Assembly (NCBI GenBank): GCA_051294905.1
Contig: CM119371.1
Location: 36,148,001 to 36,212,000, forward strand
Direction: 5' to 3'
DNA: 64,000 nt
Source: Botryllus schlosseri
Lineage: Eukaryota
Positions 4,001-64,000 of the stretch are shown here, piece after piece. Numbering within the stretch: position 1 is the first letter of the stretch; each line of letters starts with the position of its first letter. A model generated the notes under the pieces. It saw nothing but the letters and a program-made list of their open reading frames with translations, searched no databases and had not been told where the DNA came from. The position numbers were made by a program, and so were the translations under genes.

Positions 4001-7000
4001 AAAGGCAGTGACATAATCAAGCGATCTACTCGCATATAGCGTCAAATATCTCCAGTAAAAAGTTAGTTGCATAAACAATCAATAAAACTGGCATGTAAAA
4101 TCGAAAAGAGTTGCGAAAAGTTGCATGAAAAATCGAAGAAACACCATACTACATAACTCTAGAAGCTGTCGGAAGTTATAAAAAAAGTTGCAAAAGTTGG
4201 AAAAACTTGCTCTTCTCAAAGGTAATGCAAACCAATCTGCAAAAACCGTCATGCTTTACCAAATCACGCGTGAACAAATATGTAGCTTTGCCTAAAAAGT
4301 GTTGAGGAGAAACGGATTGATTCTTGAGCCATGCATCTTTAGTAGGAAGTCCAAGTGGGCAAACCTATACACTTGAGTATACTTCCGTCGCTATACATTG
4401 ATATTGTTCAATTCTGGATTCACTGTACCATTGAGAACACCAAAGTCAAGTTACCCATACCTTTCTCGAATCGTTCGCGGTTCTTTTTTCGAATCTCTTC
4501 GAGCAGCGACCTTTTCGCCAGTTCGGACCTGGTCTTTTTGATCCTGTCCGGGTCCTCTTCCGCCTCGCCCGGTTTCAAACACTTCACCACCTTACACTGT
4601 CCGGACTTGATCACGTACAGCCATTCGCAACGGGAACTGTCTTCGACGATGAGCGTGCCTGTGTCGTAAAACTTGATTTAGCAATGGTTGTTATGTAATC
4701 GACTATATGAAGAATCAGAATCCGAAACCGAACAATCGCTTAACGAAATTGGTCATTGTTATGTTCAATGTGTTGAGGCACTGCCATTGTTGGAACAATG
4801 CCGATGGTCCGACGCTAGGGCTGCTTCGGGGTGGTCCCGTTGTCCTGACAAGATTTTAATTTGTATTTTCGGAATCAGTGCGACACTATCTTTCGATTAA
4901 CGCCAATTACAGTAAATTTCAGTGCACGGATCGTCATCACAGCACTACCAATTACGTTATTTTTAGATTGCTCAAACTGCTTGTCCAAGTGTAACCATCG
5001 GGTGTCGGATATGCATTCGTATGCTAGTAATCTATAGTTATAATTGAGTAGCAATGCTTGGTACTTTGTTCCCATATGATGGCAATTGCTATTTGATTAA
5101 GTGAGCCTTACCAGGCTTGTAGTTTTGCATAGTCCAAGCGCTGGGGTTGTCCACCAGCTTCTGAAAAGGCCAGTGATGAAAAACCGGGTTATTCTTGCAA
5201 ATAGTCAGACTGGAAATGTCCTTGGCGCCTTTCGAGAAACAAATATTCTTGAAATCCTGAAAGGGAAAGGTAATAGCTTCGATCAATGCGATTTCGTTCC
5301 ACGGAACACCAGTTAATGACCACTAAACTAGATGATACAAAACAACAGCCATCCCAATATAGAACTGTCTCAGCGCAAAATTGCGAATATATGTGTATAT
5401 TACTGACTTACATCGCCGTATACCACAAACAACTCGGCAGTGTCCTGGCTCATTACGGTCATGTTTCGTTTCGATTCGGAAATAATTTCCTCTTCCCCGA
5501 AGCTGTCGCCGCGCTTGAGCAGCGTCGTGACCATGTGACCGTCTTCTTCCTCTCCATTGGCCACCACTGTAATAAGAAATGTGTTAATATATATGCAGGC
5601 CTACAGATTAGGTCAGTCCGAAATACTTATGGAAATGAACTGCGCGCTCAAAATGTCAACAATAACAACAGTTTCTTGGAGACACAGAACGTCAGTAGAG
5701 AATTAAGCAATATATTTCCATATTGAAATATAGCCGAATATCTTCGGCTGACACTCGTCAGGGATAATCGTCAGCAACTAGTACATAATTCAAAAGAACT
5801 TTAAATCAACAATCGTATTACGAAATATCACGTCACCTCAAGCATTCTAAATTGCATGCCTGTGACGTCATATTTGGTAATACGAATGTAGATATACATT
5901 ATACAATGCTCTTTCCCATTCTCTAAATTCTCTACTATAGTGGCCGACTATTACCCCTGACGAGTGTCAGCCCAAAATTTTCGGGTTTATTCCAATATGA
6001 ATTTATTATTCATATTTTATGGTATACTTACGTCGCCCGGATATCACGTAATAAATACACATGGCTCTGTGTCCTGCGCGAAGTACGACCCTGTTCGGGT
6101 CTACTGTCTGCAACCAGGAACATTCGCAAAGCCGCCTTTGCACGGTCAAGGGATACCGAGCGAAGATCTCCATCTTCTGCATCGTGCGCATGATCTGAAT
6201 ATCGAGATTATGACGTCACGCATATCACAGAACATCCTTGTCGCATATAGATATAAGGCTGTGCAATCGAGCATATAGCTAGTATCAATTTTTATCATTC
6301 GAGTATGGACACAATATTTTGAGGTGCCTTATAGTCGTTTTGTTGTGGTATGACCTAGAGCTGATTCGAACCTCTGAAAGGTTCCACGTGAACGCGAACG
6401 CTAACCCGAACCTTTGACTCCTTGTCACGTCATATTGCTAATTCCAACCCTACCTTTCCGAGGATTAATATGCTTATGTACACGATACCTAGCCACGACT
6501 CAGGTCACATTATGCCGCAATGCTGAGTACATGCTGACTTTTTCAACGTCACCAAATGTATCTATTGGAACAATCAAATGTTATAATAATTCCACAAAAA
6601 CAATAAGTTACGTCGCTTGGTCAACAATTTCGAAAAGGACTTGCAAGGGAATATATGCATGGGCCTTAAAGGTTTAGGCTGGACCGGACAATGTATTCCT
6701 CAGGCGTCATGTTATAGTGCTAAATTGATATTGATCAGAGCGAAATATCGGTTTCTATACTTGCGACGGATATTACTTTATGAACAAGTTAGCTATGCAG
6801 GATCCAACACCGCGATTAGACGGATTTGTTTTTTATGATACAATAAGCATATAAAATCAAGAGTGATCCTGTATACGCCTGATAGACAGACAACGATGCA
6901 TTATTTGCACTATACTTACACGAGTTGGTATGTTTTTCGAATATACTTGCACATTGAATTAACAGTTTTTTGTTTTTTAGCCAAAACAATAGGCCTAGAA

Positions 7001-10000
7001 TTCCTACTTTTTTACCAACTGGACACCTCTACTTTCACTAGAACTCGGGTAGAAACCAGTTGAGTACCAACGATAGCGACTTTCATCGCCCCTGCTGCAC
7101 AGCACTGACAGAAATGTCACATTGACTCATATCCCAGTGACATATTACTGTCAGTAAAATTGAATAAATTTATATAGGCAAGTGTTAGTGGCGTTACGTA
7201 CTTCGCGGTATTACATAAAGTACGCGTTTGCACACTCCAAGACCCTCTTACAGTTATTAAACCATAATAATAGTCGACTCGCATCGAAGCTTTATACTCT
7301 GTCCGGAAGATAATAACTCAGGCACTCTATTTCTGCCTAGCCCTTGTAGATAGTTACGTCCAATGTGACTTACGTTTACGATTTCGTCCGGCGTCCTATC
7401 AGTAGGATTTTTTCGTAGCAATTCTTTTATTTTCACGGGCATCACGTCGATGTCTTTGGACTGTCGCCGAAACTTGCTGAGGTCAAATGTCAGCTCCGGA
7501 TCTCCGGTCGTTAAAGCTGTTGATACGTCACTTATTTAGCTTTCTAAGATTCATAGCTTTAAGGGTGAGGTTTGATAGGAATTGGAGCTATACACTTGAT
7601 CACTGGCAATCACATCATACTGTGAATCCATAGTTGGAAAACGGATAATGAGACACGCACTTTGTGTCTGCCATTTTCCGCAATCACGAATTCACCAACC
7701 ATTTTTCTTTTCCTTATTTTGATCTTTGCTGACGTCACTTTCGCGGAGCAACGACTCTTTTAACGCCACCCAGTTGTTCTGAGCGACAGAAAACGTCATA
7801 CTCCTGGAAAATACATGAAGTACATAAAGTACATAAAAATTAGGAGCGGGTTTGGGTTGGTTGAATTTCCGAAACATGCTTCAACACCTACTTTTTGCAA
7901 GCGATGCAGACAGAAGTGAGAAGACGTATTACACGCGCGGCTCTCCTGAAACGGAGTATAGGCTGCAAAATACGCATACACCGGTCAAATAGCGTTTGAC
8001 AATTTCCTAAAAGTAGTGAGAGTTGGTACTCAATTTGAATTAGTTGTAAGGCCATGAATTTTTATCTACTGACCAGCCTTACGCCTAACTTTAACGGCTG
8101 TAACCGCGCTTGTAAACTGCATGCGCTCACCGGAATAAAAGTCACGTCGACTCTGTGACCGTCTGCGGCCGGATTGAAATTTCTCGCGAACATAGACGCG
8201 CGCCGCATGCCGCCCACCACGCTCATCAGCTTCGCTTTCACTTGGCCATGGTTGTTGATAGTCGGTATGGACCGCCGGGCGCCTTCGCCTATGGAAAACG
8301 GGAAATGAATCAATGATATGTGGGAGGGTATGAGTAAAACATGGGGTTGATGGCAATGTTCGGTTCAAATAGCCGTCACTATACGAAACTTCAAAATTCG
8401 TAGGATCGCGTTCGCATACGAGCCTTAGCAGGTTCTACCCTGTGAACATAGTTTGTGAAATGCAGTATATTGCAGTAGTCTCAACATCAATGATCAGAAT
8501 GTTTTGTAGTTCGACTGCGTCAAGGAAATTCTTCACAAAGCTAAGATTGAGTTCATCACAAAATTCATTGCAAGCAATCACATATTTAAACCCGAAAGTA
8601 TTTCGGATGTATGTATTCCAGAGTTGAAGTGAAGTTTTGGAATCCGCAATTATTCAGTTGTCCATGATCAGTTATTGTAAACAGTTTGTGAACAACTTAC
8701 AAATTCCCCATTGGCTTCGTATATTTTGTGTATCCCGTCTGTTATTGTTACCTTTAGCGTTGGTATTAATGTAATGCTTGCTACATTTTAGGCATCGTCT
8801 TATAAAGACAGAGGTTTTAGGCATTCCAATGCAACTCTCATCGAACTAAAATTCCAAATAATTCAAACCGGCGTATTGCGAACTCCGATAATCGTAGCCT
8901 AAATGCATCAATATCAATAAGCATATATTATATCTTGACATGTACGGCTGTACCTACAATTGGTTGGAATTAGAACAGTGACGTCGTATTGTTTCGTGTT
9001 CACTGTTCACAGATAACCTGAACCTTACAGGGGCTCGCGCTATCCCAATAAAACAATAATGTCGTGCTTGAGAATTCGTTCGGGGTACTTTAGAAACTTT
9101 GATCTCCAGCTACCCGGCTGTTTATTGTTGACACAAGAGGCCCGTCATTGTTATGTCGGCTTGTGGAATTCGATATGGAAGAATGTCCTGATTGTAGTGC
9201 AGCCAGAATAACCAATCGCGTAGCGTATACAACAGAGAGGCTTGATTCCGGTTCAATAAGTACAACTCGACTGTTTTCTTGTAATACATTGGATCTGAGA
9301 TTGGATCTGATGTTGCAGTGCGCGATTATAGCAGGGTACTAACGCAGCTGTTACGCCGGGCAGTATCCATCAACATATTTGACATCGCACTTGGGTGAAT
9401 AAAACATCGATTTTCATTGAAAAAACGTCAATTATAAGTGGAATTAGGTATTCTAAAACATATCAAGTTGAGAAACAGTACTATACTAACGCGAAAAAGT
9501 AAAAGTACTTCGTTACTCACGAGCTCTGATTAAACTCTATTTTGAGTTTAAAAGTCAACCTCGCTATTTAACGATGGAAGTTGACGAGGGCACAATTGAA
9601 TTTTGAGATGGGAATTGAACCTTTGCTGAAACCCACAAGTTCATCATCAAAACTCCTTGGGAATAACGATCAAACATTCGGGCTACAGACGATTGTTTTC
9701 TCTACGAACAAGACCCAGTTTTCACATCATGTTGGACATACGACATGCCTTCGTCATTGTATTTTCATTGAGCGATATATTCCAATATACAATGACGCTT
9801 ACTTAACTAGTTAACATGACCGGTCCAGGGTAGAGATGGTTTCGACATCATTCAGCTCGATCAAAGTAACCGGCTTTATGGTTAATGTTGACAAGCTACT
9901 GGTCAGGGTGTATTGTGTGAGCGTTGCTTCAATGGAAGTGTTTGAACAAGAAGTTTGGAAGCTGAACATTGTTATTTTTGTCGGCTGATTGATGCGCCGA

Positions 10001-10980
10001 CCGAAATGCCAATCTGTGGCAAGTCTTGTATCTTGAATCCTGATACAGCCTTATTACATTGCCAAAGCATATTACGCTATTAGCTATCATTGTTCTATTG
10101 ATTAGAGTTATTACGTTGCTGATCAATATCTCTGTCCGATACTGTGTTAATCAAGTATCTTCTCAGTTTGGTTATGTTCTATCAACCGAAAGAACGTGAC
10201 GGGAAAGCGTAATGGTATGTCCTACAAAACATTAATGGGTTGCTAGTTTGAGTCTGACCGTGATCGACTCCTGGATTCCGATCTAAGTGTTGGAGGTTTA
10301 TCTAGGCTCGTCCTCGCCATGTGATGAGCGTAAGCGGTGTCTTACAAAAGCCTAAAATTCGGCACATAAGGACTCACAATACGACGAACTGACCTCTGGC
10401 GATAATGACCATAGTAGGCTATATAGTCAAAACACCGCGAATATCATTATCGACAACTATACCAAACATAATATCACTATCTGCTTTACATAAGTACAGT
10501 GCATTCGTACATTGCTGTACAGATCGTATGAGAACTGCTTGATTTGTTGAATTTGAAAAGGTGAACAACGCCATCTGAAACGCGTAAGAGATGTCTTAAA
10601 AAAGCTTGGAAGCGCGCCATGCTACAAGTCGGCCGCTAAGGAATCATGTAAAATCATATAGGCCTGGTATAAATGACCATCGTAGCCGACAAACACACTA
10701 AATACCAAAACTAACGGCAACAACAACATCTGTTGTGAGTTTGGAGATTGTCATCCCCTGCGTTATAGGTATCACACCGACACGGCACCTTGACCCGTAA
10801 ACGTTTCAAAGCGTTACCTTTCGTCGGAGATGCCTCACGAATGGGTGTAGCAAACTTCACTCTTCTTCCTGTCGGGGTAGGAGTTGGGTTCGGACTCGGA
10901 AAACCGCTTCGATGACCCGACAATGGCGTGTGGGGTGTGTGAGGGGTATGAGGGGTGTGCGGGCTCGGCGCTGATGCCAT
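1048..10980 (-). CDS. CNBD2: Cyclic nucleotide-binding domain-containing protein 2-like, 13 coding exons, 611 aa
   Basis: Exons assembled by hand (minus): 10980-10818, 8288-8131, 7962-7892, 7803-7700, 7516-7374, 6194-6032, 5566-5412, 5256-5112, 4658-4461, 3492-3380, 2835-2710, 2096-1956, 1203-1048. All introns are GT-AG with consistent phase; 1836 nt total. Translation includes LTFDLSKF, a first cNMP-binding domain (VLRAGH..IYYVISGRL..LKRGDSFGEEEI..KRNMTV), a second split domain (WLYVIKSGQCKV..LGVGDSFG..VSLISCGAEVVQINRKFF) and C-terminal FPPFP..WKDYK. Orthology to CNBD2 is from recalled motif similarity, not a search. Confidence 0.85.
3030..3290 (+). mobile_element. tRNA-derived SINE family copy
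   Basis: Shares tggaggtttatctagg..gtaagcggtgtctta.aaaagccta with 10195-10460, and gctacaagtcggc..ggcctggt.taaatgaccat with 10580-10710. Confidence 0.6.
5731..5775 (-). ncRNA. Degenerate hammerhead ribozyme motif (GAAG variant)
   Basis: Minus strand GCTGAC..atcc-CTGACGA-gtgtcagcc-GAAG-atat-TC-ggct. Confidence 0.5.
5943..5988 (+). ncRNA. Degenerate hammerhead ribozyme motif (CAAA variant)
   Basis: accc-CTGACGA-gtgtcagcc-CAAA-attt-TC-gggt. Confidence 0.5.
10195..10460 (+). mobile_element. tRNA-derived SINE family copy
   Basis: Degenerate A/B boxes; body shared with 3030-3290 and 35257-35750. Confidence 0.6.
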
Positions 10981-11536
10981 TTGTGTCGGTTGTATATCAC
11001 ATTTAGCATTAATTCCAATCTGCCAGAATTTTGCCAATGGTAACGACTGTCGCCAATAGTGCTTTGTCATGATGTCATTGCCGTGCCGGGAGTTGACTTG
11101 CGTTATGCAATTGTGTGCGTCTCAGAGTCAAATCGAATACACCGCACCAGACTTGTACAAACTACCAATCGATTTAGTTGACGTTCAACTAACTGCTGGA
11201 ATTTTGAAAAGCTCTAGTTCTATTTCTAGTTGCTGATTTTGAAACGTGACTATTAGTTATGTTGCGCATTTTGAAAATCCGTACATACTGTGACGTAAGA
11301 CTCGTTTGTAAATCACAGTGTTATGAAGACGCCACCTAATTATTCATGTTTTAGCCATATATCTCACTAAACGTCGCGGTGTCCAAACGACTGCCAGACA
11401 GTTATGCGTGCGACACTTTATGGAGCGACTTTGTAGCCTTCAAAACTATCCCTAACAGCACCAACACAATACAAAAGTAACCCTTCAACTATAATCCTAC
11501 GGCACAATGAAAATTTACAGTTGAGCAATTGAGCAT

Positions 11537-12046
11537 TAGGGGTTTTCAAAAATGACTTTTTCTCTCAAATTCTACTGGCTACTTGATAAAATTGTTAGAT
11601 TACATAATTGAAGCCCGCACACCAAATTTGGCTCAATTCCAGCCTGTAGCCGCATTGCTACAGGAGATGACATTTATTTATTATAAAAAAAATTAATAAA
11701 AAAAGTTTCAAAACGAGCGGAAGAATTGGTAACCGTAAATACTATTTTATTCAAATCCAAAATTTTTCGACGGCAATAACTCCACTTCCAGTGATTGCAA
11801 TTGAGCCAAAATTGGCGAGCATCGTTTCTATAGACAACCTAACAATTTCATGGGTGCACAGAAAATTTTGAATTATTTTTTAATAATTTTTATAATATAA
11901 ATAAAAAAAACTTTCTTCTCCAGTAGCAATGCGGCTAATGGTAGGAATTGAACCTAATTTGGTGTGCAGGATTCAATTAGGAATCCTGACAATTTTATCA
12001 AGTAGCCAGTTGAATTTGATAGAAAAGTCATTTTTGAACACCCCTA
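11537..12046. mobile_element. Palindromic MITE with long terminal inverted repeats, hAT-type 8-bp TSD
   Basis: Ends TAGGGGTTTTCAAAAATGAC / GTCATTTTTGAACACCCCTA; TSD TTGAGCAT on both sides; arms complementary over roughly 190 nt. Partial copies at about 36680-36956 and 55490-55740. Confidence 0.85.
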
Positions 12047-12296
12047 TTGAGCATGCGACACTTAGCCGTGTGACTTTGTGACCCAAAAACTAAACAAAGA
12101 CCAACAACCAACTCTTACTTCAACTATATAACCCCAACCTTAACCCTAACTTACACCCGGTTGCACAAGTGTCGCATGCTCTTACGTTCAGTTTCCCGAC
12201 CGGTCAAAACCATAAAATTGAACGGGGTAAGTGTGATTTATTTCCTTCTATGGGTAGCTCACCAGCCATGATTATCTGACCTATTCTTCATTTGAG

Positions 12297-12530
12297 ATGT
12301 TTGAGCTCAAGCATGTAGGCGTTTCACCGAGTTTTCGTAATCGTGAAACTACGAACGCGTCCACGCTGAGAGATCAGCGGGTTGAACATAGGTATATCCG
12401 GAAAGACAGTATTTCAGTATTCACCTTTCTTCGGAACCTTGATTCGAACTTTTCGCTTCTGACTCTGCATCACGTAGTTTTGGAGCTGTTGGCTATTCAT
12501 GAATCACGTTTGGCTCACAAAAGCGATTAA
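12297..12530 (+). mobile_element. Possible degenerate Penelope GIY-YIG remnant
   Basis: ETT..L..RVEH....DS..F....LDSNFSLL..HH.VLELLAIH weakly resembles Penelope endonuclease motifs. Confidence 0.3.
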
Positions 12531-13175
12531 TCTCTAAGCGTCCATCGAAACCCAACAAGGCTCAAGGTCTTCGACGTGTCTATCACAGATTAGCAATGGA
12601 GTGCAAATACGGACAGTTACGTGCACCTCAGACTGCTAGTCTCTTCAGTAACTTACGCTACGCCTTATCTACAAACAGGAGAATTCCAATAAAACACACA
12701 CTGATAAATGCTCACAATAACATTATAGGTTCATGCCCAGACAACTGAAGACCGTTCCAACTCGCAAAGATTTGTCTCAACGGAAGCGGTAGCTCTGACT
12801 ATAGATTAAATAGTTATAACACTCTGACAACTAGTCCCGAGAATAGACATTGCAGTGATCGGTACGAATTTGCAATGGTATCCGATCATTGTAGTTCACA
12901 AAATATGCTTTACAAATGGTGATAATCCATACTGACGATTGACAATAATCTGGCAGCACCCTAAATCGGCGAGGATGGTGTATTGAAATTTCGGTTTGAG
13001 GTGACATTGGAAACGCCTACTTCGTCAATATGTTTTATATCAAATGTCTGCTTAAATAGATTTGTCTGATAATAACATAAACCGTTATCTTAAGTCGTAA
13101 TTTTATAAGGGGCCTTTCTTGGTTGCTGTGTCGTGGAATTGTACAACAAATCATAGAAAACATACTGGGACCGAC

Positions 13176-14666
13176 CAGTGGCGTAGCAGCCACCTGGCGG
13201 TTCTGGCTCTGCGCCAGGGGCGGCATGCTCCAAGGGGGCGGCAAAATGAGGCTGCACAGTGAGAGAGAGAGATATGGTTTTCTATTTCGCCTGCACCATC
13301 GAGATGCTTTGACGACGGAGATGCCATACGGACGGATAAGGTCATCTAGTCCGCAACCCGTTTTTTTCTGCTCCGTGATTGCTGAGCGCATAGCGGGGTA
13401 ACCGCGGACACCAGATTTCTAGTCTTTGGTCGGACCCCGCCGGGAATCGAACCCACGACCTACCGGTCAAGAAGCCCGATGCATCACCATTACACTATCT
13501 CGCTCGGCACGGTGTACAGTGTACACAGCCGGCTAAAAGAAGCGTAATTGGTAGTCCTATAGCTGGCGTCCCATGAGCTAAAATTTAATCAAACAGGCCT
13601 CAATCGAAAGCTAGTGTCGCGCTGATTTTGAAAACACGACTTAATATGTTAACATGGCGATGGAACCACTCCGAAATAGCCGTCAAGGCCTATTGTTCGG
13701 AGAGTTCGCAAAAAAAGGAGAATGCGTGGCGAACAATCAGAAAATTATGGCCTCAGTGTTGTTGAAGAAGTTAGACGATGCATGTTTCAAGCTTTGGACA
13801 CATTTAAACCTGAAGCTGAAACTAGATTTACCGGCATACACCACTTAAATGACACGTTTCGATTTTTGAATTCCCACGCGCTGCTGCAAAGCAACAGTCA
13901 CAATTTATTCACCAGCGCTTTTAGAAGCACTTATGACGACAAGGTGGACTTTTTGGAGTTAGCCGCGAAAATTGTCATGCCTTATACCTTCGAATTAGGG
14001 ATCATATAAATCAGAAGATTGCTAGCTTTTCGTACAAACCAATATGAGGCTTCTAGGACGAACACAAATTAAGATATATGATAATTTGAAGTTGTTCAAC
14101 TTGAGATTTGAAAAGGGTTAAGAGGCTGGTGCGGAGCAGTAAAACCACGTTTGATCGTAGTGCAACAGCGTTTGATGTTTTACAGTGGTTAGTTGCAAAG
14201 CTACTTGATTCGACACCATATTTATGCTCGTGTCTGAAACTTTATCTGACCATTGGTGTTTAAATTGCCAGCTGTGTGAGGAGCTTCTCAAAGCTCAAAC
14301 TGATTAAGTCTTATTTACGTTCTACCATGAATGATGATCGGCTATCATAGCTCTATGCATTCTGTCTATAGAAAGAGACTACGTTCAAAAACTTGAATTT
14401 GAGGATATTATCTCTGAATTTGCTTTGAGGCGGCTATTGATTTTCTATTTTCACAATACATTCGTTCGTCATTTCTTGTCTTTATTATTTTTGGCCTTAT
14501 TAACGTTGAGACGGCGAGGCTGAGACGCGGCATAATATTCTTAATTATTTTTATTGACAAGATTGTTTGAACATGAGTCTAAGTCGAAATATGCTGCGGT
14601 CTATTTAGGAGGGGGCGGCATTTTAAGCGAGAGCCAGGGGCGGCAGCGCATGCTGCTACGCCAGTG
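13176..14666 (+). mobile_element. Deleted hAT transposon with transposase remnant (ZMYM1/Tip100-like)
   Basis: TIRs CAGTGGCGTAGC / GCTACGCCAGTG; perfect TSD GGACCGAC. About 14265-14425 encodes ASCVRSFSKLKLIKSYLRSTMNDDRLS*..ILSIERDYVQKLEFEDIISEFA (hAT C-terminal dimerisation region), with a stop and a frameshift. Confidence 0.9.
13259..13508 (-). mobile_element. tRNA-derived SINE nested in the hAT element (MetaSINE-like core)
   Basis: A box TAGTGTAATGG (13487-13497), B box GGTTCGATTCC (13443-13453), central ccaaagact..ggt..cgctcagca segment, (TC)n tail. The MetaSINE assignment is from recalled consensus. Confidence 0.75.
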
Positions 14667-17600
14667 GGACCGACACAACTCTGTCGATCATATACAGTAG
14701 CAAAATACAGCGGCAACATACAGTTCGACATATTTAGCATTGGCCGATCACCAACTACATCAACATTTCTTGTCCACCTAAAACCGTCAACAATATGGTC
14801 CGTCTGTAGCCACATCGTACCATTATCATAAATAAATCTTCGTACGACTACAATGCCAGGGCGAAAGCAATCTCATTACATAACAATATATGACTTATAT
14901 CTGTTTGTCCTAGCGCAATTCTAAATCGGGAACGCCTACATCTGACTACCTAATTACTTGGCAATCTGTGATAAAAACGCTTATCTTAGATTTATCGCGG
15001 GGCATCATGATATATGACCTACATCTCTTGTTTGTAGTAAAAACGACCTAGCTGTTTGTCCTGGCATAAGTCTAAATCGGGAGCGCCTAAAGCTGTCTTG
15101 TTAATTACTTCACACTCGTTCTATACTTGATAGCGCATTAGGGCTTACGGAGGCTTTTGAGAACATTCCCAACGCTATAATCTCACTCGAAGCATACAGA
15201 CAACGGGCATGGCACAACAACTGAATTTGCCAATTAAATGCCCAAACACACAAGAACACTCGAGAAAATTAAACAAAGCCCATAAATTACTTCTGTTCAC
15301 AGTAAATCAAGCGAGATCTTAACCCTCTTCTTATCATGCTTTCTGATCGCAGTGTACCAACGAATGAGTTAACTTACTGCCCGTTGTAAGGGTATTTAAC
15401 TAATTGGTAATTCACGAGGACTCAAGACACCCAATGTAGACATACCATAACGGGTTTGAGTTGAAATAAGCATGATGTTCAATAGTGTTACGCTACTACC
15501 AACCGAAGTTGCGCCATTGCGTCAAGGATTCACTATAACCTGCGACTCACAACATTAACCCTACCTGAGATAAGTTATTGGTACATTCAGTGACGAAGAT
15601 AGGCGCAGTGGCACACAGTACGGATTAAATTCCCCATCAATGAAGTCAAATCGAATCGATTTTTTAAAAACCACGCGACAAAATTCTCTCCACGGTAACG
15701 AGCGCTTGGCACTCGAATGAAATGAATTGTATATGATGAGTGGCTTCGACAACGCATACGCTCTCTCGTGAGTAGTAAATAAAATAGCTTGTCCTGCTAT
15801 ATATACTACTGTACAATCTGTACCAATTGCCTCATGTGACTGTTGTTGTTATGAATATGTGATGCCGCCAGTACTACTAACGATTATATACAGAGGGATA
15901 GAACGTGCATGTCCCTACCTGTATCATGTGGCTAGTGTTGGCAACTATTCAGCTAGTGTATATTTCTGCTTGTCCGATAAGACTAATTAGGGTGAAATGC
16001 CGTTAATCTAATTCTAATCCTATTTGTGAAATGTTTCTATGGTTTAATGTTATTTATAATCTAATTTCTGGCGTTCCTAAAAATGCTTCAGGTGAACTGT
16101 AGATTTCGCCACGATCCAGACTGGGTGTACAAGTACACTGTACATTGTACAAGTACACTACAGTACAGACATTGGCTATTTTCGTGGTAGTGACCATGAG
16201 ATATGATTTGGTATGAACTGAACTTGCTCTTTGTTCTATTTCTTTATAATTACGAATTTATTCAATTTCCAAGTGTTTGGGAATTCATTAATTCTAATTC
16301 TAGTCTGAGACAAAACGGTGTATAGTTATAATTCGAATGTTAATCTAATTCGGAACAGATGGAAATTTTCTAGTTGTATAAATCTTGTTAGCCCATAATC
16401 TCGCATGAAATCTACTGAAAAAAGCTCGCATATTGTCTTATGGCCAGTACCCATCTATGACGTAGGTCTAACGGCTAACACTTGCAGATTATTCGCTGTC
16501 TGCTCCCGGTAAAGAGAAAGGCGAGAAACCACTGATTCAACCTACAAATGATTAAACTGAGTCCGGCATTAAACTAGCATACATACAAAAGCTGACACAT
16601 TTAACTATACAGACCGGGCTTTCGTGCGAGCAAAGATACAGCCTCGTCTGATTGATTCCGGGACATATCACGCAGTTCATATTCCATTCTGATCCAAAAC
16701 TGACGATCAGGTCAATATTTACTATTGTGTGGTTTGTGCGGACCCTTGACTGCTTGGCAACCGGTCTCCAGACTTCATGACATCGTAAGTGATGACATGA
16801 CATCAGATGATTGGCAGGTATTTAATTATTATCAAGTCTGCGGATGTTATAGTCAATGAAACATGACCATTAGATCTCAATGGTCAATTGTGATAGTCAT
16901 GATCTAGTGTACAAATCGCTAAGTATATTCGTGATATCTCAGTCGATGGCATTCCGCCACATTCTGTTTACACGGGGATTGATGTTGAGCCTTATGATGA
17001 ATGGAATACTCAAATAGATCACGGTAACATCTGGTGAAGGTGTAGCTATTGTTGCGAGACGTTTCAACAATACCGGTACCTACTGTTTCCGATTAAATGT
17101 TCCCGCCCGTTGTGGTCAACACAATGAGCGTGATAATCACACAAAACCCACGCGAATGATTGACAGTCTCCTTATCGACAACGTGAATATAATTAACCCT
17201 CAGAAGGCGACTACATAAAAATCAAATGAATGATATCCTGTTTTTAAATGTGTGGGTCTGAATCTTGGAGAGCTCTGACATCACATCCGTACGCATGACG
17301 TCTTCTACCAGCCGTTCCAATAATTCTACGACGCATTCGCGGATTCAAGCTCAGATTCGTACGCAAATCATATTTATAATTTAAGTAGAAAGTCGTACGT
17401 TCATACCTCTCGGCTCTTCAGTGGTAGTTGGGCAGCTTGAACGCCTAGTTCGTTGTGTGGTGGACGACGTGGATGTGCGACTCATGTTTTCATTGCATTA
17501 ACAGAGGCTTAGTTTAATTTTATTACCTTTAGTTATATGATTGACATCTTAAAGTTGAAAAGATATAATCATGATCGATGTATCTTATCTGTTCAAAAAT

Positions 17601-19853: not shown

Positions 19854-22800
19854 ATGTAAGGTCAACCCCCTTTACAATACCGTTATCTCTTAACCAGAAA
19901 ACCAGTGTGCTGTAAGCTATGACCAGTGCTTGTTAGCGCTGTAATTAGTATTGCTGATTACTTAGGCTAGGCAAAATCGAGTGACTGCTTGGTTTATTAT
20001 CACTCATGAAATGCAGCATTTACAGCATGAATGATTTCAACAGTTCAAATATGTACCTTTTATGTGACCACATGTTACACATCACTTTAACGATAGTTTA
20101 TTACTTTTTTGAAGGTACAGTACACTTTGCGGCAACGCTGCGAATTGATCCCTATTTCGGAAATGTCGCTTACGCGCGTATCTTTCTGGTAGGCCGCATG
20201 TTTTCAACGCTGTGAAATGACTAATCTAAGTTTCAATGATCCCATGGGGGGAAGAAAGTATTGAAACTATATCATTCTTGTTTAAATAGTATCAGTCTTA
20301 GTGGATGGAGGCGTATCGGGGCCTACGATACTTATACCTATACGTACACGATGATGACCTGAAGGTAGCTGTCATATTCCGACAGCATATTGCAAAAACA
20401 CTGCATCCGTACATCAGTTGTACAGTCAATGCCGGCAGTCTTATTTCGCGCGATATCTTCACGTAGAAATCTGGAAGTTTACGTTCAATAGCTATTCTAC
20501 CATTAACGCAATTACTGATGACGTACGCTTCTGATGTGAGTCACACATAAAAGTTTCGCGTGGAAGTAACTTGGTAGTATGAATATATTGTCTTATATTT
20601 AAGTAGGGTATACTTTTAAAAGCCTATGTACAACTTGTGATTTGTGTCTTAGACAAACAGACATCGGCACGGGCCGGAAGAAGACCACACTGTGCTGCCT
20701 CTAGCGCTAGCCATCTCCCATTAGAACCTATTGGCAATGACACCATGGGGTAAAGGGCTCAATGTTTGACAGGACATCACAACCTGGAAGAAAAGCAACA
20801 GTGTTTGCATAAGCATAATACAAATGTAAATCGACAATTTGATTTCGACCATACATTGGTGACGGTGATACTTGGCAGTACAGTCGGCAATTTGACAGCC
20901 CATACAAAGCTATATTTCGGTATTCCGATATCAAATGTGTTGTTTACCTCGTAAACATCGCGGAAAGTGTATTGGTCAATTTGTGAATTTGCTATCTATA
21001 GTGGAGGCGGTCGTAGTAGCAAAGCAATAGCATGATGAAGTAAAAGAGTATTGGACAAGAATAAGTAGCAATAGAATTATACAGCATTGTGAACTTGGTC
21101 ATGTTTTGCTACACCTGGTTTTGGCCGAGGCCAAAATCTTTGAATGGTATTCTAGTTATGCTAAGTGAATAGTATAGGATCGGCCACGCCTTAACAGGTA
21201 TTTTTCGCAATAGCGAATACTGTCCGTGGAAATGCACTGATTTGGTCTCTGGCTCTACGTGCTGGTTTTTACACAGCAGTGCGTATGCAGTATAGTTTCT
21301 TAGACATTGTTATTTTCCACCAGTCTAATTAGAAAACAATACAATTAATACTCCACTTACCTCATGACGCTCTTACCATAGCAAGCAACGTAAATGTATT
21401 CCATAGATCGATGATATTATCTTCCACAAGTAGCGACGGGTTTCTACAATCCGTATCCGGCTGATGGAGTAGACACCATCACTTCACAAGCCTAATTCTG
21501 CTACGACCCGATCTAAATGACTATTGTAGCATTATTATGATAGCGTAATGTTACCATTTTTCCAGATTGTTTCTAAAGTGTCGAATTTCCTAGTCTTGTT
21601 TTGGGACGCCATGTTTTCGGGTATAGCCAAGTCGAACACAATGGCTACTACTGAAGAGGCGTTGTCTGTCGATTACATATCTTAGGATGGCCCAAACCAT
21701 GTGACACGCGGGCCAGCTAGTCGCTGCTTCCATACTTGTAATTGAGTAGAAATTGACGGCGTTCTGTTTGAGTAGTAAGCGGATTAGAATGTAAAATTGA
21801 ATACTGTGACATCGGGCAATAGCCGAGATGGATGCTAGATACGAGACTAGTCGCTTCGGCATCCTCCTATCATTTCATTATATTGCATTGTGTCTTGTGT
21901 ATCGCATTGTACATTGTGTGTCTAGATGAAAATAGATATTCCTGCGATTATTATTATGCCTACTTGGGCCAACTCTGCACATATCCAGCATGATTTGGTT
22001 GACTAAAGCTAGGACTGCCATCTTTTTAGACCCGAGAAAGAGGACACTCTTCACAAGTCATATCAGCAGACATTGAAACGGGAGGTTTTTGCGGAAAATG
22101 GTGATCAGTCGTGGGTTGACTAGAAAAGAGGCCATTTTTCCGAGTCGCTGCTTGAAAACCGGTTTTCTCGGCTAATTTACGTTGGGTTGATTTTTTATAT
22201 CCTTATTTAGTCAACCTTCGCGTCAATGGTATAGAAAGTCAGTTTTCACATGTCTTTTCTGTCGATATTACCGTTTTTGTTGTCTCCATGTCGTCATCTC
22301 TTAACACTCACGGCACTAACAATGACATTTGGGCGTCCTCTGAGGATATTTCGGTTTCCTTGAAATAATAGGAGAAATCCTCTTAAAAGAGGCATATGAT
22401 ATCCCCATTAAAGCATGGAACACAACGCGCAGGTATAATGGCCAACTGGGGCGGCTTCAACAGCTATAATTTGCAGTGGCAGTATCTGCATAGTATCTGA
22501 AGTCCATATTTAGGTGAGTTGCTGTGCTCTCAGGGGTGCCTTCGACTTGATGACTAATCACCAGGCCTGTTTATTTTTGGATATTGGGTTTTATTTTTGG
22601 AGATTCTCCAAAAATAAGATTTGAAAACATCCAAAAATAAGATTTTTTTGGATGATGCTTTTTTCAAGTTTTTTAGTGAAATAAACAAGTCAGAGCGATG
22701 TAAACGACCAGGAAACTCATAAAAACACCCAAAAACAGCATCTATGTGAGGGGGGTCACGGAAGCGCTAAATCTACTGCCACTCATTCCACTTCACGTTC

Positions 22801-41626: not shown

Positions 41627-43264
41627 CTACAACTTGACAAATGTGGACGCGTCGACCTTGAAGCTTCGATCGACTTTTGGTTCCACTTTATACCATTTGT
41701 CGTGCAGTATATCATACTTTTCCATACATTCAAATTTCTCATAACTACATGCTACATAAATCAAGTTTCCCACGTGATAGGCAAAAGTAAATGCATGGGT
41801 AGCATTTGTACTCGACAATGAAGTCCACTGAGCTGACGTGACATCGTAACATTCCACGTTGTTGAGTTTCCTTCCTTCCCTCAACCCACCGATCACATAT
41901 ATCCTTTGATCGACTGCAACACCGCCGGTGTAGCACACAGGATATCTCAATGGTTGGAGGTCAACCCACTCTGACGAAGATGGAGTGAATCTGCAGAATG
42001 AAGAAACTTCTTTTAAGCCAATATAGTCTGGGTCTGGTACAGAACCTCCGATACAATAGATGGAGTCATTCAATGATACAAGACCTGCATCAGAAATTGA
42101 TTCGGGTTTGTTTTCCAGTAGGCACCATTGATTTTCAGATGGGTCAAATCTTTCCACAATATCTGTTACCACACTACAGCTTCCTCCAATAACGAAAAGC
42201 GATCCCGACAACGAAATTGAGTGACTCCAGGGTCCATGGTCACCAATCATATCGTTCATCTGCTCCCATTCTGAACTTTTGTTTCGAAAATTGAGTCGAT
42301 GAACAGATTTATCTTGGCACAAAACATAAAGATAGGAGTCGAGAGAAGTCAACTCAAAACGCTCCGTACTCATAAACTTCTGATCATGAAACTTCTCCAG
42401 CTTTTCGTTCATGGGATTGAAGGATCGGAGACAATCTTCGTCACGAAAGTCGAAAAGAATTAATAATTCCCTGCCATTTTCTGCCTCGATCGGCTTTATT
42501 GTGGCTTTCATAAGATGGTCATTGATCAACTTGTACAACAAAAAGTCATTGCTGATAATGGGATGAGTCTTTAACAGATTTTTTAAAAATGCTGGGGACA
42601 TTAAATCAAACCTGAGTAGATCCAAACAATCAAGTAAATTATCATTATTATTTAAATTATTTTCAACCCACTTCAGTGATAGCATAAGCTTTTCTTGCTC
42701 ACAAAGTTTTGTAATTTTTGAAGTCACGACACTGATGATGTCTTTTTTTTCTGTATCTCCGAACTCGCAGTGGTTTGAAATTTCCATGATATTGTTTTGA
42801 AAAAACATTCTGCATTTCGAGTTAACATCGTCCAGTTCGTACCTATCCGCAATGTTTTTTGTGGAGAAGTAATTCTGAACGGAAATTGTTTCGGCCAAAA
42901 TATCAGATACGGCAAGCTTTACATCTTCCAACTGCATCATGATTGCGACATGAAGAAGATCATACCTCTTTACGTCAGGAATCTCAAATATTCCCGAATA
43001 TATGAAATCAATGCAATTTTTCACACACTCGGAATCCACATCGGTGAACACGACTTTTCCTTCGCGTCTTTCTTTCGTGTCGTGCTTCAACATAGCTTTG
43101 AAATAATCAGAACCAGCCGACAATATGTTTTTGTGGGTGTAATAGACATCATCTCCGACTTGAACTATGAAATCACAATGATCATTTTCCAGTTTCATTT
43201 GATGTAACTCTTCCATCATCTTCACAGCGTGTTTCTCCGCATCAGAACATATGACTTGCACCAT
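41627..43264 (-). CDS. Intronless Kelch-like protein (BTB-BACK-Kelch), 545 aa
   Basis: Single ORF. BTB: CDFIVQVG..YTHKNILSAGSDYFKAML..CIDFIYSG. BACK: L..WV....LRFDLMSP..L. Kelch repeats: LFVIGG..VERFDP..W, IYCIGG, IYVIGG..VECYD..W, EKYD..W. Confidence 0.95.
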   Translation of the reverse strand: MVQVICSDAEKHAVKMMEELHQMKLENDHCDFIVQVGDDVYYTHKNILSAGSDYFKAMLKHDTKERREGKVVFTDVDSECVKNCIDFIYSGIFEIPDVKRYDLLHVAIMMQLEDVKLAVSDILAETISVQNYFSTKNIADRYELDDVNSKCRMFFQNNIMEISNHCEFGDTEKKDIISVVTSKITKLCEQEKLMLSLKWVENNLNNNDNLLDCLDLLRFDLMSPAFLKNLLKTHPIISNDFLLYKLINDHLMKATIKPIEAENGRELLILFDFRDEDCLRSFNPMNEKLEKFHDQKFMSTERFELTSLDSYLYVLCQDKSVHRLNFRNKSSEWEQMNDMIGDHGPWSHSISLSGSLFVIGGSCSVVTDIVERFDPSENQWCLLENKPESISDAGLVSLNDSIYCIGGSVPDPDYIGLKEVSSFCRFTPSSSEWVDLQPLRYPVCYTGGVAVDQRIYVIGGLREGRKLNNVECYDVTSAQWTSLSSTNATHAFTFAYHVGNLIYVACSYEKFECMEKYDILHDKWYKVEPKVDRSFKVDASTFVKL

Positions 43265-43532
43265 GATAAATGATTATTATAAAATATTTAGCGTACTTGA
43301 AATAGTGCTGAAATAACAAATCATCACAGGTATCGAAAATATAATCCAAACATACAAGTTAAATTTTATGAATCACAAGAATGGTGACGACGCATTGACT
43401 TCTTACAACATGAGCTCCTAGACATTTTCCACTGCGTACCCCACACGAAATTTCTGCAGGTATGGCATATCCCTTAAAAATGTTGTATCAAGTGTGCATA
43501 TCGAGTGAAAGACTTTCACACATCACTACACT

Positions 43533-46099: not shown

Positions 46100-46261
46100 C
46101 TACGAAGTAATCCTCATCACCACGACAATTCACTACAGAGATAATGTATCGTAGCAGACCGCGGGTCCTTAACGTAATGTCCCTAGGTAACGCCAGGTAT
46201 CTGTTACGAGGGAACTGTAGGCTACTGTGCTCGTAGTACTGGAATTGCCACGTAACCCACA

Positions 46262-46460
46262 TACAATTGCACAATATAATGGCTTCGTAATCTTTTGTCG
46301 CGTATTGCTCAATTACCATCATAATCCTTTGGCGTATTGCGCAATATTAATTACCCCTTGCGCATTGCGTAAGCTTCGCTATCCTGCCGCGCATTGCGCA
46401 TGTCTACCCTTTTCACGCAAACCACAACGCCCTTTTTCCGTATCGATCGGGTATAAACAC
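46262..46460 (+). promoter_or_regulatory. Cluster of C/EBP-type bZIP palindromes followed by a TATA-like box
   Basis: ATTGCACAAT 46266, ATTGCTCAAT 46304, ATTGCGCAAT 46336, ATTGCGTAAG 46364, ATTGCGCATG 46393; TATAAA 46452. Confidence 0.4.
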
Positions 46461-50584: not shown

Positions 50585-50729
50585 CAGTGGTTCTCAAACA
50601 GTGGTACACACAATCGATTTATGCGGTATGCAGTAAATTTCAAGTAAAATTACTGTGTTCACAAATCGTTAGCGATAAATCATAGAACCTCGAGGCAGTA
50701 TGCCGATAGAAAAAATTTGAGAACCACCG
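50585..50729. mobile_element. Short hAT (Charlie-like) MITE
   Basis: Ends CAGTGGTTCTCAAA / TTTGAGAACCACCG. Confidence 0.7.
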
Positions 50730-51793
50730 CTATATAGGAATACATAAATGGACGACATGGCGCAAGAATTAACAACTTACACGAAAGCTAATTCATTGTC
50801 ACAATGAGTATTTCAAACATTTACAATCCGATCACGCATAGATTACGAAAAATGGAACAGAATCTTTTTTGAGCGAACTACACACTCTGTAAATAAAAAT
50901 TGAAGATATCGTCAGCACCATTGGCGAAAGAGATTACATTTCACCACATCTAGAATTTCGTACAGGCCACACTGCGACGGTAATTCCGAGTTTAACGCGA
51001 GAGAACGTATCGCGGGCATGGCTTACTGCGGAAAAATATACATTTCGTCTATGAGATTAGTGCGATATGCTTGCATATTACATTGCTATTAGACTGTGTT
51101 CTATTAGTTGCTCGGTGCAAACCGTTTTTTAGATACAAAATAGGTTGTTCTTAGCAGCAACGTAAGAAGTTGGCTTGCCATTCGAAAAATGATTGTTTGG
51201 GTGTGGGACTACCGGGGTTTCAATAGTGAATGTGTTCACCTTTTAACGATAAGTAAATGACACAACACCCACCAACGATTATTTTCAAATTCAAATTTTA
51301 AAGTTGTGTAGCTTTGTCCGCTACTGTATGTTTCGTACGCTGTGTTGCGACCAATCGATGTTCTAACACTGCCACATCGGGAATAAAGTATCAAAACTAC
51401 AATCGTCGTTGACAAAACAGCTCTCAGTGTCGCATAATTTCAGAACTACTCAATTCGACTCATTACAATTACCACTAGATTGGGATTTGAGTATTCAAAT
51501 CAACGATTCCAGCCATACTAGTCGTAACTACTGCATTTCGATGATTGTGAATTTCGAAAGGAACCTAAACAGGGGATGCATTAGCAAATGATCAGTGGAA
51601 AATAAACTTACAAAAGTACAAACTATGAAGACATGTCGGGACGGATCTGAAGAAATCTGTGTTGAAGAAATGTGCTTTTTGAGGGTAGCCCAAACCGTTA
51701 AGGTAAATCAAGATTTTGTCAGACATAAAACAAAAAAAGTAGACCGTAACCGTTATCGCAATAGGGTTGGCGGGAATTGAAGAAACAAACAAG

Positions 51794-59287
<7,494 letters not shown>

Positions 59288-59311
59288 CTTCAAAAAAGGC
59301 ATGGGTATAAG

Positions 59312-60655
59312 CAGGGTTGTGTATGACTCGAGTCGAGATTCTTTGGTGACTCGACGTGACTCGAGTCAATTTTTGTTCAGACTCGACTCGTAGGCCACTC
59401 AAGTCATTGTGCACGATTCGAACCGAGTCATATGACTCGAGAGTAGGACGACGAAAAGACAGACTTTGAAGAATAATAAATGTTACCACATTATTAGTAC
59501 GGTATTTCGTCTAACAGTCCTGGTACTTGGGAAATCGGGCAATAAACTGTAAGACTGAGTAAAATTACGATATTTTGAATGCGAGACATTCGACAGCAGA
59601 GGTTCCCAAACGGTGGGGAATTCCCCACTGATGGGGAATTTCGGGATTTTTCGTGGGGAATAGACTGACTTTTAAAAAAACATTACAGTAATGTTCTTCT
59701 TTATTAAATGTCGTTTTGAAATGCCGACCGAATATTTAATAGCTCATTTGCAATTCAGCGATTGATATTATCAGTGCCTCCTATAGCGAGAATTGCCTGG
59801 ATAGCGACACGCGATCTCCAGACATGTTTTTATTCATTTGTACACCATCATCGGTCACGAAACGTAGTGATAGAAAAATTCTGATTCGTTGTAATACGAG
59901 CTCATATTGCTGAACTGAACATGTATTCAAGGGAGATCGTCGACTCGCTAATTGATAGCACATCCGGACTCGTTACAAAGGAAATTACATATTTATGTTA
60001 TATTTAAAGTTCTTTCAGTATTGTGCGAAAGTGTAGTTTACGGCGGCTTATATATATATGTATCGCACGCATGAGTTCGTCAACGTCAGGAAGTTTATCT
60101 GACCCATATACTATTCGGTATTTACGTATGTAAATTGATGCTACCCCGAAACATTTGGAAAATTTTCAAACCCCTCCTATTTTTCCGCTGGCTGCGCGCC
60201 GGGGTGGATACATATATTTACGGAGGTGCGTTTACGGTGACGAGTTCACCGCTGCGTTAATTTTATTGTGTGCTGATCAATTCCGGGGATCTTAACAATC
60301 ACCAATAGCACGTACTATATACTAAGCAAAGTCTTGCAAAATTTTATTGGAGGTAGCACTTTTCTGGTAGATATGAATATAGAGTTTTTAGGTGGGGAAT
60401 GAAGGCTCGTAATAAATCGGAAGTGGGGAATTAGGATGAAAAGGTTGGGAACCACTGTTCTATAGGCTATCACTCGAGCAAAGTTGAAAAAACTGAACGG
60501 TGAACACAAAGGCTTGGACTCGAGTCAAAACACTATGACTCGAACTCGACTCTCTACTCACTGAATTGACTCGGTGGTGAATTGAAAATGACTCGAGTCA
60601 AAGAAAAGCGTGAATGACTTGTGACTCGGAATTTTGCGACTTGGTTACAACCCTG
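59312..60655 (+). mobile_element. GACTCGAGTC-rich hAT MITE with a nested Charlie-like element (59597-60457)
   Basis: TIR CAGGGTTGT / ACAACCCTG; TSD GGTATAAG / GGTGTAAG. Nested element ends CAGAGGTTCCCAA / TTGGGAACCACTG. Confidence 0.85.
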
Positions 60656-60769
60656 GGTGTAAGGTTAGTGTCAAGTCCACAGATGGTTGTATAGTTCTCA
60701 ACTTTACTGTGTCAGAGAGAGAGAGAGAGAATCTTTATCCGTCAACCGTACAAATCAATAATTAAATAA

Positions 60770-63534: not shown

Positions 63535-64000
63535 TGGTGTGCCAAGACGGTTCTCAGCGTCAGCGTCACGCCTGTGTGTAGTCAGTAGAATCTTTGGTGT
63601 GCACGAGACACCGATTCCATATTGGTTTCAAAGAGTGTCAGTCGAAAATATCAAGGTTCGTTTCAATACAAATACACTGCATTGAACTCGTGAAGCTCTA
63701 CAAATCACATAAATATGGTAATAAAAATGTAATGAGGTGAAATGTAATATTCTAGTGATAGGAAAGATATAAACAGGAAGGTCTACATAGCAGAGTTCTC
63801 AAAGTCAAGCCACCCATGCCAACGCCAGGAGCATCTTAGAAATATATAAATATAAAATATATAAGAACCACCATTATTGCCTGAAATTGGTATTTGGTGG
63901 TAGACTCTAGCAGAAAAAAGAGATAATGATATTATTAATATATATTCCGTGATATTATTAAATCTCGATGACGAAATTAACTGAAATACATAAAATGTAT

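Follow-up and report, generated by a model that had tools for sequence, protein, structure and literature searches.

Minimal type I hammerheads have been described in the pLTRs of metazoan Penelope-like elements (PLEs) (Cervera & De la Pena 2014, PMC4209133). The descriptor of that study sets a minimum of 3 bp for stem II, and stem II has at least 3 bp in the rows of its Fig. S3 that were examined; because of this minimum, the descriptor is blind to a form with a 1-bp stem II. A second close system is the pseudoknot-containing (PK) hammerhead (Zhan et al. 2024, PMC11300833; PDB 8YDC). Perreault 2011 (PMC3088659) found a Watson-Crick knot joining the stem I and stem II regions in ~40% of their hammerheads and reported that a hammerhead combining a 6-bp knot and a stem II of one pair is active, the tested example being a type II ribozyme from a metagenome. 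Type I hammerheads with a helix II of 0-2 bp lie ahead of ORFs in chrysoviruses and fusariviruses (PMC13725137). In tandem arrays of PAc, a Poseidon element of Anolis, a hammerhead sits where the ORF starts; PAc appears there as the only PLE tested in vitro, and its cleavage needs protein and is dispensable for insertion (PMC11167929). Penelope hammerheads cut poorly in vitro and can be dispensed with for insertion in the sole tested system. Lünse, Weinberg and Breaker (2017) are reported to have described Penelope-linked hammerhead variants with a short stem III that cleave as dimers.

The window analysed here is a 64-kb stretch of the Botryllus schlosseri genome. The repeats in it are 5'-truncated 3' ends (pLTR remnants) of a very abundant Penelope-like retroelement. 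Full-length relatives elsewhere in the genome have a single ORF of 845-848 aa, with RT followed by GIY-YIG, and are found in tandem arrays with a period of ~2.7 kb in which each unit carries the ORF. Among three element ORFs, the profile match to RVT_1 is above the cut-off in two and just below it in one; GIY-YIG is weak, with matches below the cut-off in two of the three. PF00078 is present in homologues, and PF01541 in some of them. The Penelope origin assumed in the original prediction is borne out, since the RT and GIY-YIG ORF lies directly upstream of the motif in long copies and in intact tandem arrays. The GIY-YIG-type C-terminus lies 105-250 nt upstream of the motif in the long copies, and the order of RT and GIY-YIG in a single ORF is that of EN+ Penelope-like elements with a C-terminal GIY-YIG. 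The element presumably belongs to the Penelope/Poseidon clade, a label given from the domain order and from motifs in the Fig. 1 legend of Craig 2021. Endonuclease identity between the element families is 52-72%. Family C is the youngest family.

The hallmarks of PLEs given by Craig 2021 include inverted truncated partners, a shared 3' end and an optional tail. The Botryllus element likewise shows pLTR tandems, 5' truncation, a shared 3' end, an inverted truncated partner (in the window and at other loci) and an optional tail of 30-40 bp. Readings of the repeats as a MITE, a SINE or a retrozyme were dropped because the ORF with RT and GIY-YIG turned up. Non-LTR retrozymes consist of short ORF-less tandem units, each with a type I hammerhead, whereas the window copies are solo or inverted and the tandem units are 2.7 kb long with an ORF. 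A metagenome scan gave two outside relatives among 138 candidate stretches; one (L161) contains the motif on a contig that is not from this assembly, and the UTR of the other runs into poly-T. GTDB yielded one related 515-nt fragment without the UTR. A search of viral contigs for relatives of the element protein found none.

All seven of the related repeats originally listed for the window are found where they were placed and are homologous; six belong to family A and one to family B. They had been called hammerhead-bearing, a description that holds in full at 31039..31085 (+ strand, family B), the only intact motif in the window; the other six of the seven carry lesions. In the intact motif the 5' strand of the knot (31039-31044) precedes the 5' strand of stem I (31046-31052), the core CUGAUGA (31053-31059) and G10.1 (31060). 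Loop II (31061-31067), of which 31062-31067 pair with the knot strand, is closed by C11.1 (31068) and followed by GAAA (31069-31072), the palindromic loop III (31073-31076), UC (31077-31078) and the 3' strand of stem I (31079-31085), with the predicted cut after 31078. The entire remnant (30979..31145, +) is 88-90% identical to family-B element ends and spans the end of the 3' UTR, the motif, an AUG at 31100 and the first ORF codons, including the optional tail.

The family-A 3' end at 5667..5837 (-) has A15.1 changed to G and one stem I mismatch in its motif (5775-5732). The one at 5844..6020 (+) has G12 changed to C, a non-palindromic loop III (ATTT) and one broken knot pair (motif 5943-5986). 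These two copies are inverted partners. The first catalytic box and the 5' strand of stem I are destroyed in the family-A 3' end at 54450..54569 (+), where the upstream knot strand, not the hammerhead core, accounts for the CTGATGA at 54476. The family-A 3' end at 55859..55996 (+) has an intact knot and a mutated core (U4 to C, G8 to A). The longest family-A remnant (60760..61098, -) matches the end of the family-A element at 75% identity across 340 nt and reaches the decayed last endonuclease codons. It retains both boxes, with G10.1 changed to A and 7 nt inserted in its motif (60788), and its knot is broken. Only the 3' half of the motif, without the first catalytic box, remains in the family-A fragment at 63633..63674 (+; 81% identity over 42 nt). 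Three remnants had been missed: a heavily decayed family-B 3' end at 20519..20591 (+; 75% identity over 73 nt, E 7e-8 against the window), a heavily decayed family-A 3' end at 54306..54406 (-) that is the inverted partner of the 54450 copy, and a family-A UTR fragment ending short of the motif at 55740..55809 (-), the inverted partner of the 55859 copy. Most window copies are dead relics, ordinary repeat fragments rather than ribozymes. An Rfam search gave no hammerhead match in the window.

The differences on which covariation was originally proposed (stem I accc/gggt versus cgctc/gagtg, loop III ATAT versus AGCT, and GCTGAC/GTCAGC versus ACTGAC/GTCAGT) are all present in the sequence. They are real; however, six of the seven copies belong to family A and one to family B, and the covariation within the window is therefore a comparison of two sequences. 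A much wider set of families was compared, and covariation of the knot and stem I was found in the family representatives. The knot helix joins loop II to a strand 5' of stem I; in 11 family representatives 65 of its 66 cells are paired, with 7 matched double changes. The 11 and the other representatives are majority or best-preserved forms chosen by hand, and decayed copies, in many of which the knot is broken, were excluded. The helix has 6 bp in 10 of the 11 and 5 bp in one, in agreement with the predicted 5-6-bp pseudoknot. Across 15 representatives the knot and the G-C pair are 98.1% paired, and the covariation score is 0.51 compared with 0.11 when shuffled and at most 0.07 when slid by 1-3 columns. 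The entire fold is 99.2% paired in 8 representatives, with double changes in 8 of 15 pairs, and none of 500 shuffles scored as high. On the tree, the 5' knot strand changes 7 times, each time with a matching change on the same branch, a result reached by none of 200,000 and none of 100,000 random placements; the tree is partly assumed, since the B subfamilies and H were positioned from the likeness of their UTRs, and several branches are below 95% support. One in 720 column pairings scores as well. One alignment (A2) loses register 3' of loop III, and only its knot columns were used.

Both knot strands differ in sequence in families E, F, H, B2 and B3, and pairing is kept. Family B3, found after the fold had been fixed, changes both sides of an otherwise invariant knot pair (G-C to A-U). 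Three positions of the knot show almost no variation, and in family F the outer pair of the knot is a U.C mismatch. Stem I is 4-8 bp long with 6 matched changes among the 11 representatives, and the core pair switches between C3-G8 and U3-A8 on both sides together. Loop III is self-complementary in 15 of 15 representatives, with one or two central U.U in E, F and H, and its palindrome includes a UA/GC double change. From the loop III palindromes only, we infer that cutting may require a dimer. The claim that structure was selected in the active elements is confirmed over the wider family set, in which the knot, stem I, the core pair and loop III covary. The covariation shows the knot helix and stem I each to be under selection; it says nothing on their simultaneous formation.

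The CUGANGA, GAAA and UH elements, with stem I closing across the cut site as in type I hammerheads, are found in 11 of 11 family representatives. Stem II is a single G-C pair with a loop of 7-8 nt in all representatives, and the spacing from the knot strand to the core is fixed at 7-9 nt, of which 4-5 are needed for stem I. The motif is predicted to be a self-cleaving type I hammerhead whose second stem is largely replaced by the 6-bp knot. The predicted cut site lies 4-21 nt upstream of the element AUG; therefore, the cut RNA would retain the entire ORF.

The pattern CTGANGAG-N7-CGAAA-N4-TC has 7,008 matches in the genome compared with 0 for the reversed pattern, a number well beyond chance, and the exact family-A pseudoknot with both boxes has 4,422 genome-wide compared with 0 in the control. 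A search for unrelated loop II sequences with the C3-G8 core gave 35 of the 7,008 matches, and the letters matched in these come from decayed A/B copies. A pattern with a longer loop II gave 325 matches against 114 in the control; a Penelope family with a conventional stem II was sought among 30 of these longer-loop-II loci and none was found. In viral contigs, 80 of at least 119 loci with the same pattern were checked, and one has a stem I of at least 4 pairs and a knot of at least 5 pairs counting G.U. This single match lacks a palindromic loop III and was treated as chance. An Rfam search of four loci with intact motifs gave no hammerhead match. Thousands of motifs in this one genome escape both Rfam and the standard descriptors with their 3-bp minimum for stem II; therefore, PLE families scored as hammerhead-less may need a second look.

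The probable overall reading is that these mostly decayed, 5'-truncated Penelope-like 3' ends have in their terminal repeat a type I hammerhead motif in which a covarying 6-bp knot likely replaces most of stem II as a pseudoknot, and that the motif is predicted to cut only once its palindromic loop III has a second copy to pair with or the element's protein helps. The genomic copies extend beyond the predicted cut. In 57 family-A copies, the 3' end lies 28-43 nt beyond the cut in 29 and 64-74 nt beyond it in 20; in none does it lie less than 10 nt beyond. These two classes of 3' end match two RT start sites bounding the tail, as in the account of PAc (PMC11167929).

A possible mechanism can be outlined. 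A lone motif would rest in an inactive fold, with the knot helix as a plain hairpin and GAA paired with UUC of the cleavage site. When a tandem array is read through into one transcript, two motifs may swap loop III strands to form a stem III of 6-8 bp. The knot helix would stack on G10.1-C11.1, with one loop nucleotide spanning the knot helix, and the linker of 3-4 nt tying it to stem I would hold stems I and II next to each other, an arrangement seen in the solved structure of the pseudoknot hammerhead. The dimerised motifs would cut after N17 and release unit-length RNAs starting a few bases before the AUG. The template for RT would be RNA left uncut at its last motif, with the start ~30 or ~70 nt downstream of the motif. 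Reverse transcription would mostly stop early, leaving thousands of short ends that decay without selection. The boldest form of this scheme is somewhat unlikely. It holds that a lineage of animal Penelope elements carries an undescribed, stripped-down PK hammerhead without helix IV, which is fast once a partner completes stem III, cuts tandem transcripts ahead of the AUG for translation of uncapped unit RNAs, and leaves an uncut fraction to be reverse transcribed, acting as a switch between message and template. Such a switch, if true, would explain why PLEs keep hammerheads that are dispensable for insertion.

In the three of four RNA runs that contained the element, reads over the motif occur in both orientations, with a depth of ~1 beyond the tail, and look like passenger copies within host transcripts. 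In the same runs read ends in the families other than C do not pile up at the predicted cut; since the reads look like passengers, this is a weak test of cleavage. The result is also what would be seen if the fold were kept mainly as a site for binding or positioning the RT-endonuclease, or for translation start, with self-cleavage slight or incidental. PAc inserts in vitro without cleavage and shows no RNA-seq ends at its cut site in the data given (PMC11167929), and the three near-invariant knot positions could reflect protein contacts. However, every catalytic residue is kept across families whose proteins are 52-72% identical, and the two-sided swap of C3-G8 and U3-A8 is a demand of chemistry rather than of mere binding. 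A role of the fold mainly in binding or translation start with little cleavage is unlikely.

Nearest-neighbour folding without pseudoknots favours an inactive fold of two hairpins and does not outperform shuffled sequences (z ~ -0.5). The minimum-energy folds of 12 of 15 representatives form the knot helix as a nested hairpin without stem I. A hairpin of CUGAC with loop II that sequesters the core appears in the A and C folds; it was not taken as selected because it is absent from B2, E, F and H. The nested hairpins raise the alternative that the knot helix is an off-switch, a plain hairpin that misfolds the core during transcription until the element's protein or a second copy opens it. This would fit with genomic copies deriving from uncut RNA and with PAc, whose hammerhead cuts only with its protein (PMC11167929). 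Without the helix, however, stem II would be one pair under an open 7-nt loop, a form that cuts slowly at ~0.01/min (PMC13725137). The 6 bp, the fixed register relative to C11.1 and the 7-9 nt to the core are those of the activating knot in the solved structure (PMC11300833), and the tested hammerhead with a 1-bp stem II became less active when its knot was broken (PMC3088659); the off-switch alternative is quite improbable. That the complementarity is an accident of descent, such as a short CTGACGA duplication upstream of the family-A core spread by the repeats, is effectively refuted: the upstream strand does repeat the first core letters in families A, C and G, and shared ancestry of all copies means that counts overstate the evidence, but E, F, H, B2 and B3 pair with different sequences on both strands and none of the 300,000 random placements is as good as the 7 matched tree changes.

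The preferred reading, a PLE hammerhead braced by a knot, can be set against the known systems. With the minimal PLE hammerheads of PMC4209133, as presented in the parts of that source used here, the motif shares the type I topology, the short stem I, the U3-A8 core variant and the pLTR location, as well as the palindromic loop III that implies dimers (including the palindromic 15.2-16.2/loop III feature), the thousands of solo truncated copies and the inverted pairs 100-700 bp apart. Those hammerheads have a stem II of 3-8 bp, usually bulged at its 5' end by a preceding base, and a tertiary contact is not described in these parts; the Botryllus motif instead has one G-C pair and the 6-bp knot. 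PAc is similar in that RT starts downstream of the hammerhead at two sites bounding the tail and uncut RNA is the template, but it has an ordinary stem II and a cut 26 nt inside the ORF, whereas the Botryllus cut is predicted before the AUG (PMC11167929). The viral hammerheads share the 1-bp helix II, a cut a few bases before the start codon and a proposed role in cap-independent translation; they differ in their long helix III, in the lack of a loop-loop contact seen by the authors and in being viral rather than part of a retroelement (PMC13725137, as far as its relevant sections go).

The likeness to the PK hammerhead lies in stem II. Both have, in place of helix II, a 6-bp knot that rests on the lone pair G10.1-C11.1 and involves a strand upstream of helix I, the evidence in Botryllus being covariation rather than structure. 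In the account given in PMC11300833, a 5-bp helix IV has the knot strand as its loop, an AUA4 triplex strand leads to helix I, and helix III is normal. The Botryllus knot strand lies only 3-4 nt from stem I and its stem III needs a partner; inspection of the family sequences shows no conserved helix IV and no AUA4 linker, and flanks that pair over 4 bp in A and C only. In the passages of PMC3088659 considered here, the knots are not linked to Penelope elements or to a dimer-type stem III. The original description as an under-described variant is fair for Penelope hammerheads in the literature covered here, but the pseudoknot type itself is known (PMC3088659, PMC11300833). A description of the PK knot combined with a dimer-type Penelope hammerhead was not found in the literature, with the variants of Lünse, Weinberg and Breaker (2017) outside this comparison. 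The Watson-Crick brace, many natural compensatory alleles, intact active-looking arrays and the cut predicted before the AUG make the motif an easy test case for the speed of a dimerised ribozyme and for a possible role in translation. The Botryllus motif joins the known PK hammerhead, minus helix IV, to the known dimer-type Penelope hammerhead.

All seven repeats of the original prediction lie where they were placed and are mutually homologous, as judged by sequence reading and comparison within the window; six belong to family A and one to family B of the Penelope-like element (PLE) families carrying the motif. The description of all seven as hammerhead-bearing holds for the copy at 31039-31085 (+), the sole complete motif when read against the hammerhead consensus. 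The other six are mutated in the core or lack the first box. The copy at 5731 (-) has the core mutation A15.1 to G, that at 5943 (+) has G12 to C, and that at 55922 (+) has both U4 to C and G8 to A. In the copy at 60788 (-), G10.1 is changed to A and the knot, a 6-bp helix between a strand 5' of stem I and loop II, is broken; the copies at 54474 and 63630 (both +) have lost the first box. The motif is a real feature, and the original guess was correct yet overstated for the copies in the window. The window has three further remnants, near 20519, 54306 and 55740.

The repeat copies share a common 3' end and vary in 5' length. Upstream, long copies enter a GIY-YIG-type ORF whose C-terminus lies 105-250 nt before the motif, and the window copy at 60760-61098 extends back into decayed codons of this C-terminus. 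The remnants near 54306 and 55740 are inverted partners of the copies at 54450 and 55859, respectively, and the two copies at 5.7-6.0 kb are inverted relative to each other. Family-A 3' ends fall 28-43 nt beyond the predicted cut in 29 of 57 copies, 64-74 nt beyond it in 20 and within 10 nt of it in none, part of this set having been retrieved with a query reaching past the cut. Truncation, an inverted partner and a tail, an optional segment beyond the motif, are described as PLE signatures (Craig 2021; Frangieh 2024, PMC11167929). The repeat shows these signatures in its 5' truncation, inverted partners and tail-bounded ends. Endonuclease-end identity is 52-72% among families A, B, C, E, F, G and L161, a relative from a metagenome contig outside the assembly; the family-H loci read contain no ORF.

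A decayed B-like motif lies immediately 3' of a family-E end at L210:2324 (+), with similar stacking in loci L050 and L315, which suggests that one family inserted into the end of another. At L309:1350-1950, L312:1350-1950 and many more places, two decayed family-H ends face each other in inverted orientation with a fixed spacing of ~292 bp and shared flanks; they form a small non-autonomous element whose amplification as a unit apparently followed motif decay. Close relatives of the element's protein (homologue P0070 and GTDB locus L440) occur in records labelled bacterial MAGs, probably as host-DNA contamination.

In every family representative a 6-nt strand comes first, separated by a linker of 3-4 nt from stem I, which can form 4-8 bp. 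The core is next, then a single G, a loop of 7 nt (8 nt in family G), C and GAAA; loop III, which is self-complementary and 4-6 nt long, UH and the 3' strand of stem I complete the motif. Loop positions 2-7 are complementary to the 6-nt upstream strand. The 495-Mb assembly containing the window has 7,008 matches to CUGANGA-G-N7-C-GAAA-N4-UC versus 0 for the reversed control pattern, and 1,072 to the U3-A8 version versus 4 in the control. The exact family-A knot plus both boxes occurs in 4,422 genome copies.

In 15 representatives, majority or best-preserved forms picked by the analyst, 98.1% of 105 cells in the knot and G10.1-C11.1, the single stem II pair, are paired. The covariation score of these same pairs is 0.51 versus 0.11 when shuffled, and sliding the partners gives no more than 0.07. 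Double changes affect 8 of the 15 pairs of the whole fold in the eight representatives that align without ambiguity. Since shuffles ignore relatedness, changes were mapped on a tree that took its topology from the endonuclease-end comparison, with the B subfamilies and H positioned by UTR likeness. All 7 changes in the 5' strand of the knot are matched on the same branch, 65 of 66 knot cells are paired, and the one unmatched change is in the 3' strand in family F (U.C). Among random placements, none of 200,000 with equal branches and none of 100,000 with unequal branches equalled this result. Shared changes number six in stem I and two in the C3-G8 pair. Family B3, which came to light once the fold had been settled, has altered both strands at a knot pair that had been G-C throughout and is A-U there. 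These matched changes across representatives bear out the original prediction of structure-selected covariation in the knot and stem I. Decayed copies disrupt pairs freely, as expected of an element after it has inserted and died. Covariation alone would fit a simultaneous pseudoknot or alternating folds alike.

Beyond positions, we infer a working scheme of stacking, dimer cutting and an uncut template. By analogy with the Zhan 2024 structure, the knot helix may stack on G10.1-C11.1, with the short linker tying it to stem I. Stem III of a monomer would be too short; folding without pseudoknots yields an inactive two-hairpin state. Two motifs within one read-through transcript could complete stem III, which is the accepted model for PLE hammerheads (including Cervera 2014, PMC4209133). 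In the intact C, G and A ORFs the AUG follows the predicted cut by 9, 10 and 14 nt, respectively; for B, E and L161 the distance from cut to aligned start codon is 4-21 nt. Since this cut precedes the AUG, cut RNAs would retain the full ORF after a very short 5'-OH leader. Genomic copies continue beyond the cut, so the RT template would be uncut at the motif; that of PAc, the Poseidon element of Anolis, is uncut too (Frangieh 2024, PMC11167929). Reads from three RNA runs span the motif in either orientation and hardly enter the ORF start, and no end pile-up was seen in them at the predicted cut. This pattern of cover points to passenger copies and is as compatible with cutting in arrays as with its absence.

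The window also has other features. Repeat remnants at 54.3-56.0 kb probably sit in introns of a GDP-mannose 4,6-dehydratase gene, with exons at 59046-59510 (-) by Pfam match and 55280-55430 (-) by eye. An unbroken 548-codon frame at 41627-43273 (-) encodes a BTB-BACK-Kelch protein; it is intronless amid intron-rich surroundings and possibly a retrocopy. The element at 61200-63534, listed together with 31530-31800, has 116-nt terminal arms (61200-61315/63419-63534; 98% complementary) flanking G-rich and C-rich arrays of ~23-nt units and a nested insertion. Its Rfam miRNA matches are spurious.

Another repeat family with CUGAUGA...GAAA (loci L133, L136, L139-L147 and L158-L160, around 1440-1610) has a 9-nt upstream strand complementary to the segment following its first box, and might form a stem I of 5 bp. 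It lacks U-H where a cut would fall, has no neighbouring ORF and was not classed among the hammerheads.

PLE hammerheads are already known. Those compared from Cervera 2014 (Fig. S3, PMC4209133) and Craig 2021 (File S2) have a stem II of at least 3 bp, which the search descriptor of Cervera 2014 also demands, whereas the motif here has one G-C pair. No description of the knot combined with a 1-bp stem II in Penelope elements was found in the literature compared, which did not include Lünse 2017, the likeliest place. In other hammerheads, knots joining loop II to the flank of stem I are a known and common feature, including where stem II is 1 bp (Perreault 2011, PMC3088659), and viral ORFs are preceded by type I motifs with a 1-bp helix II (PMC13725137). 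The solved pseudoknot hammerhead has a 6-bp knot on G10.1-C11.1 in place of helix II (Zhan 2024, PMC11300833). The motif here resembles that structure in its 6-bp knot on the same pair, as indicated by covariation, and differs from it in having no helix IV.
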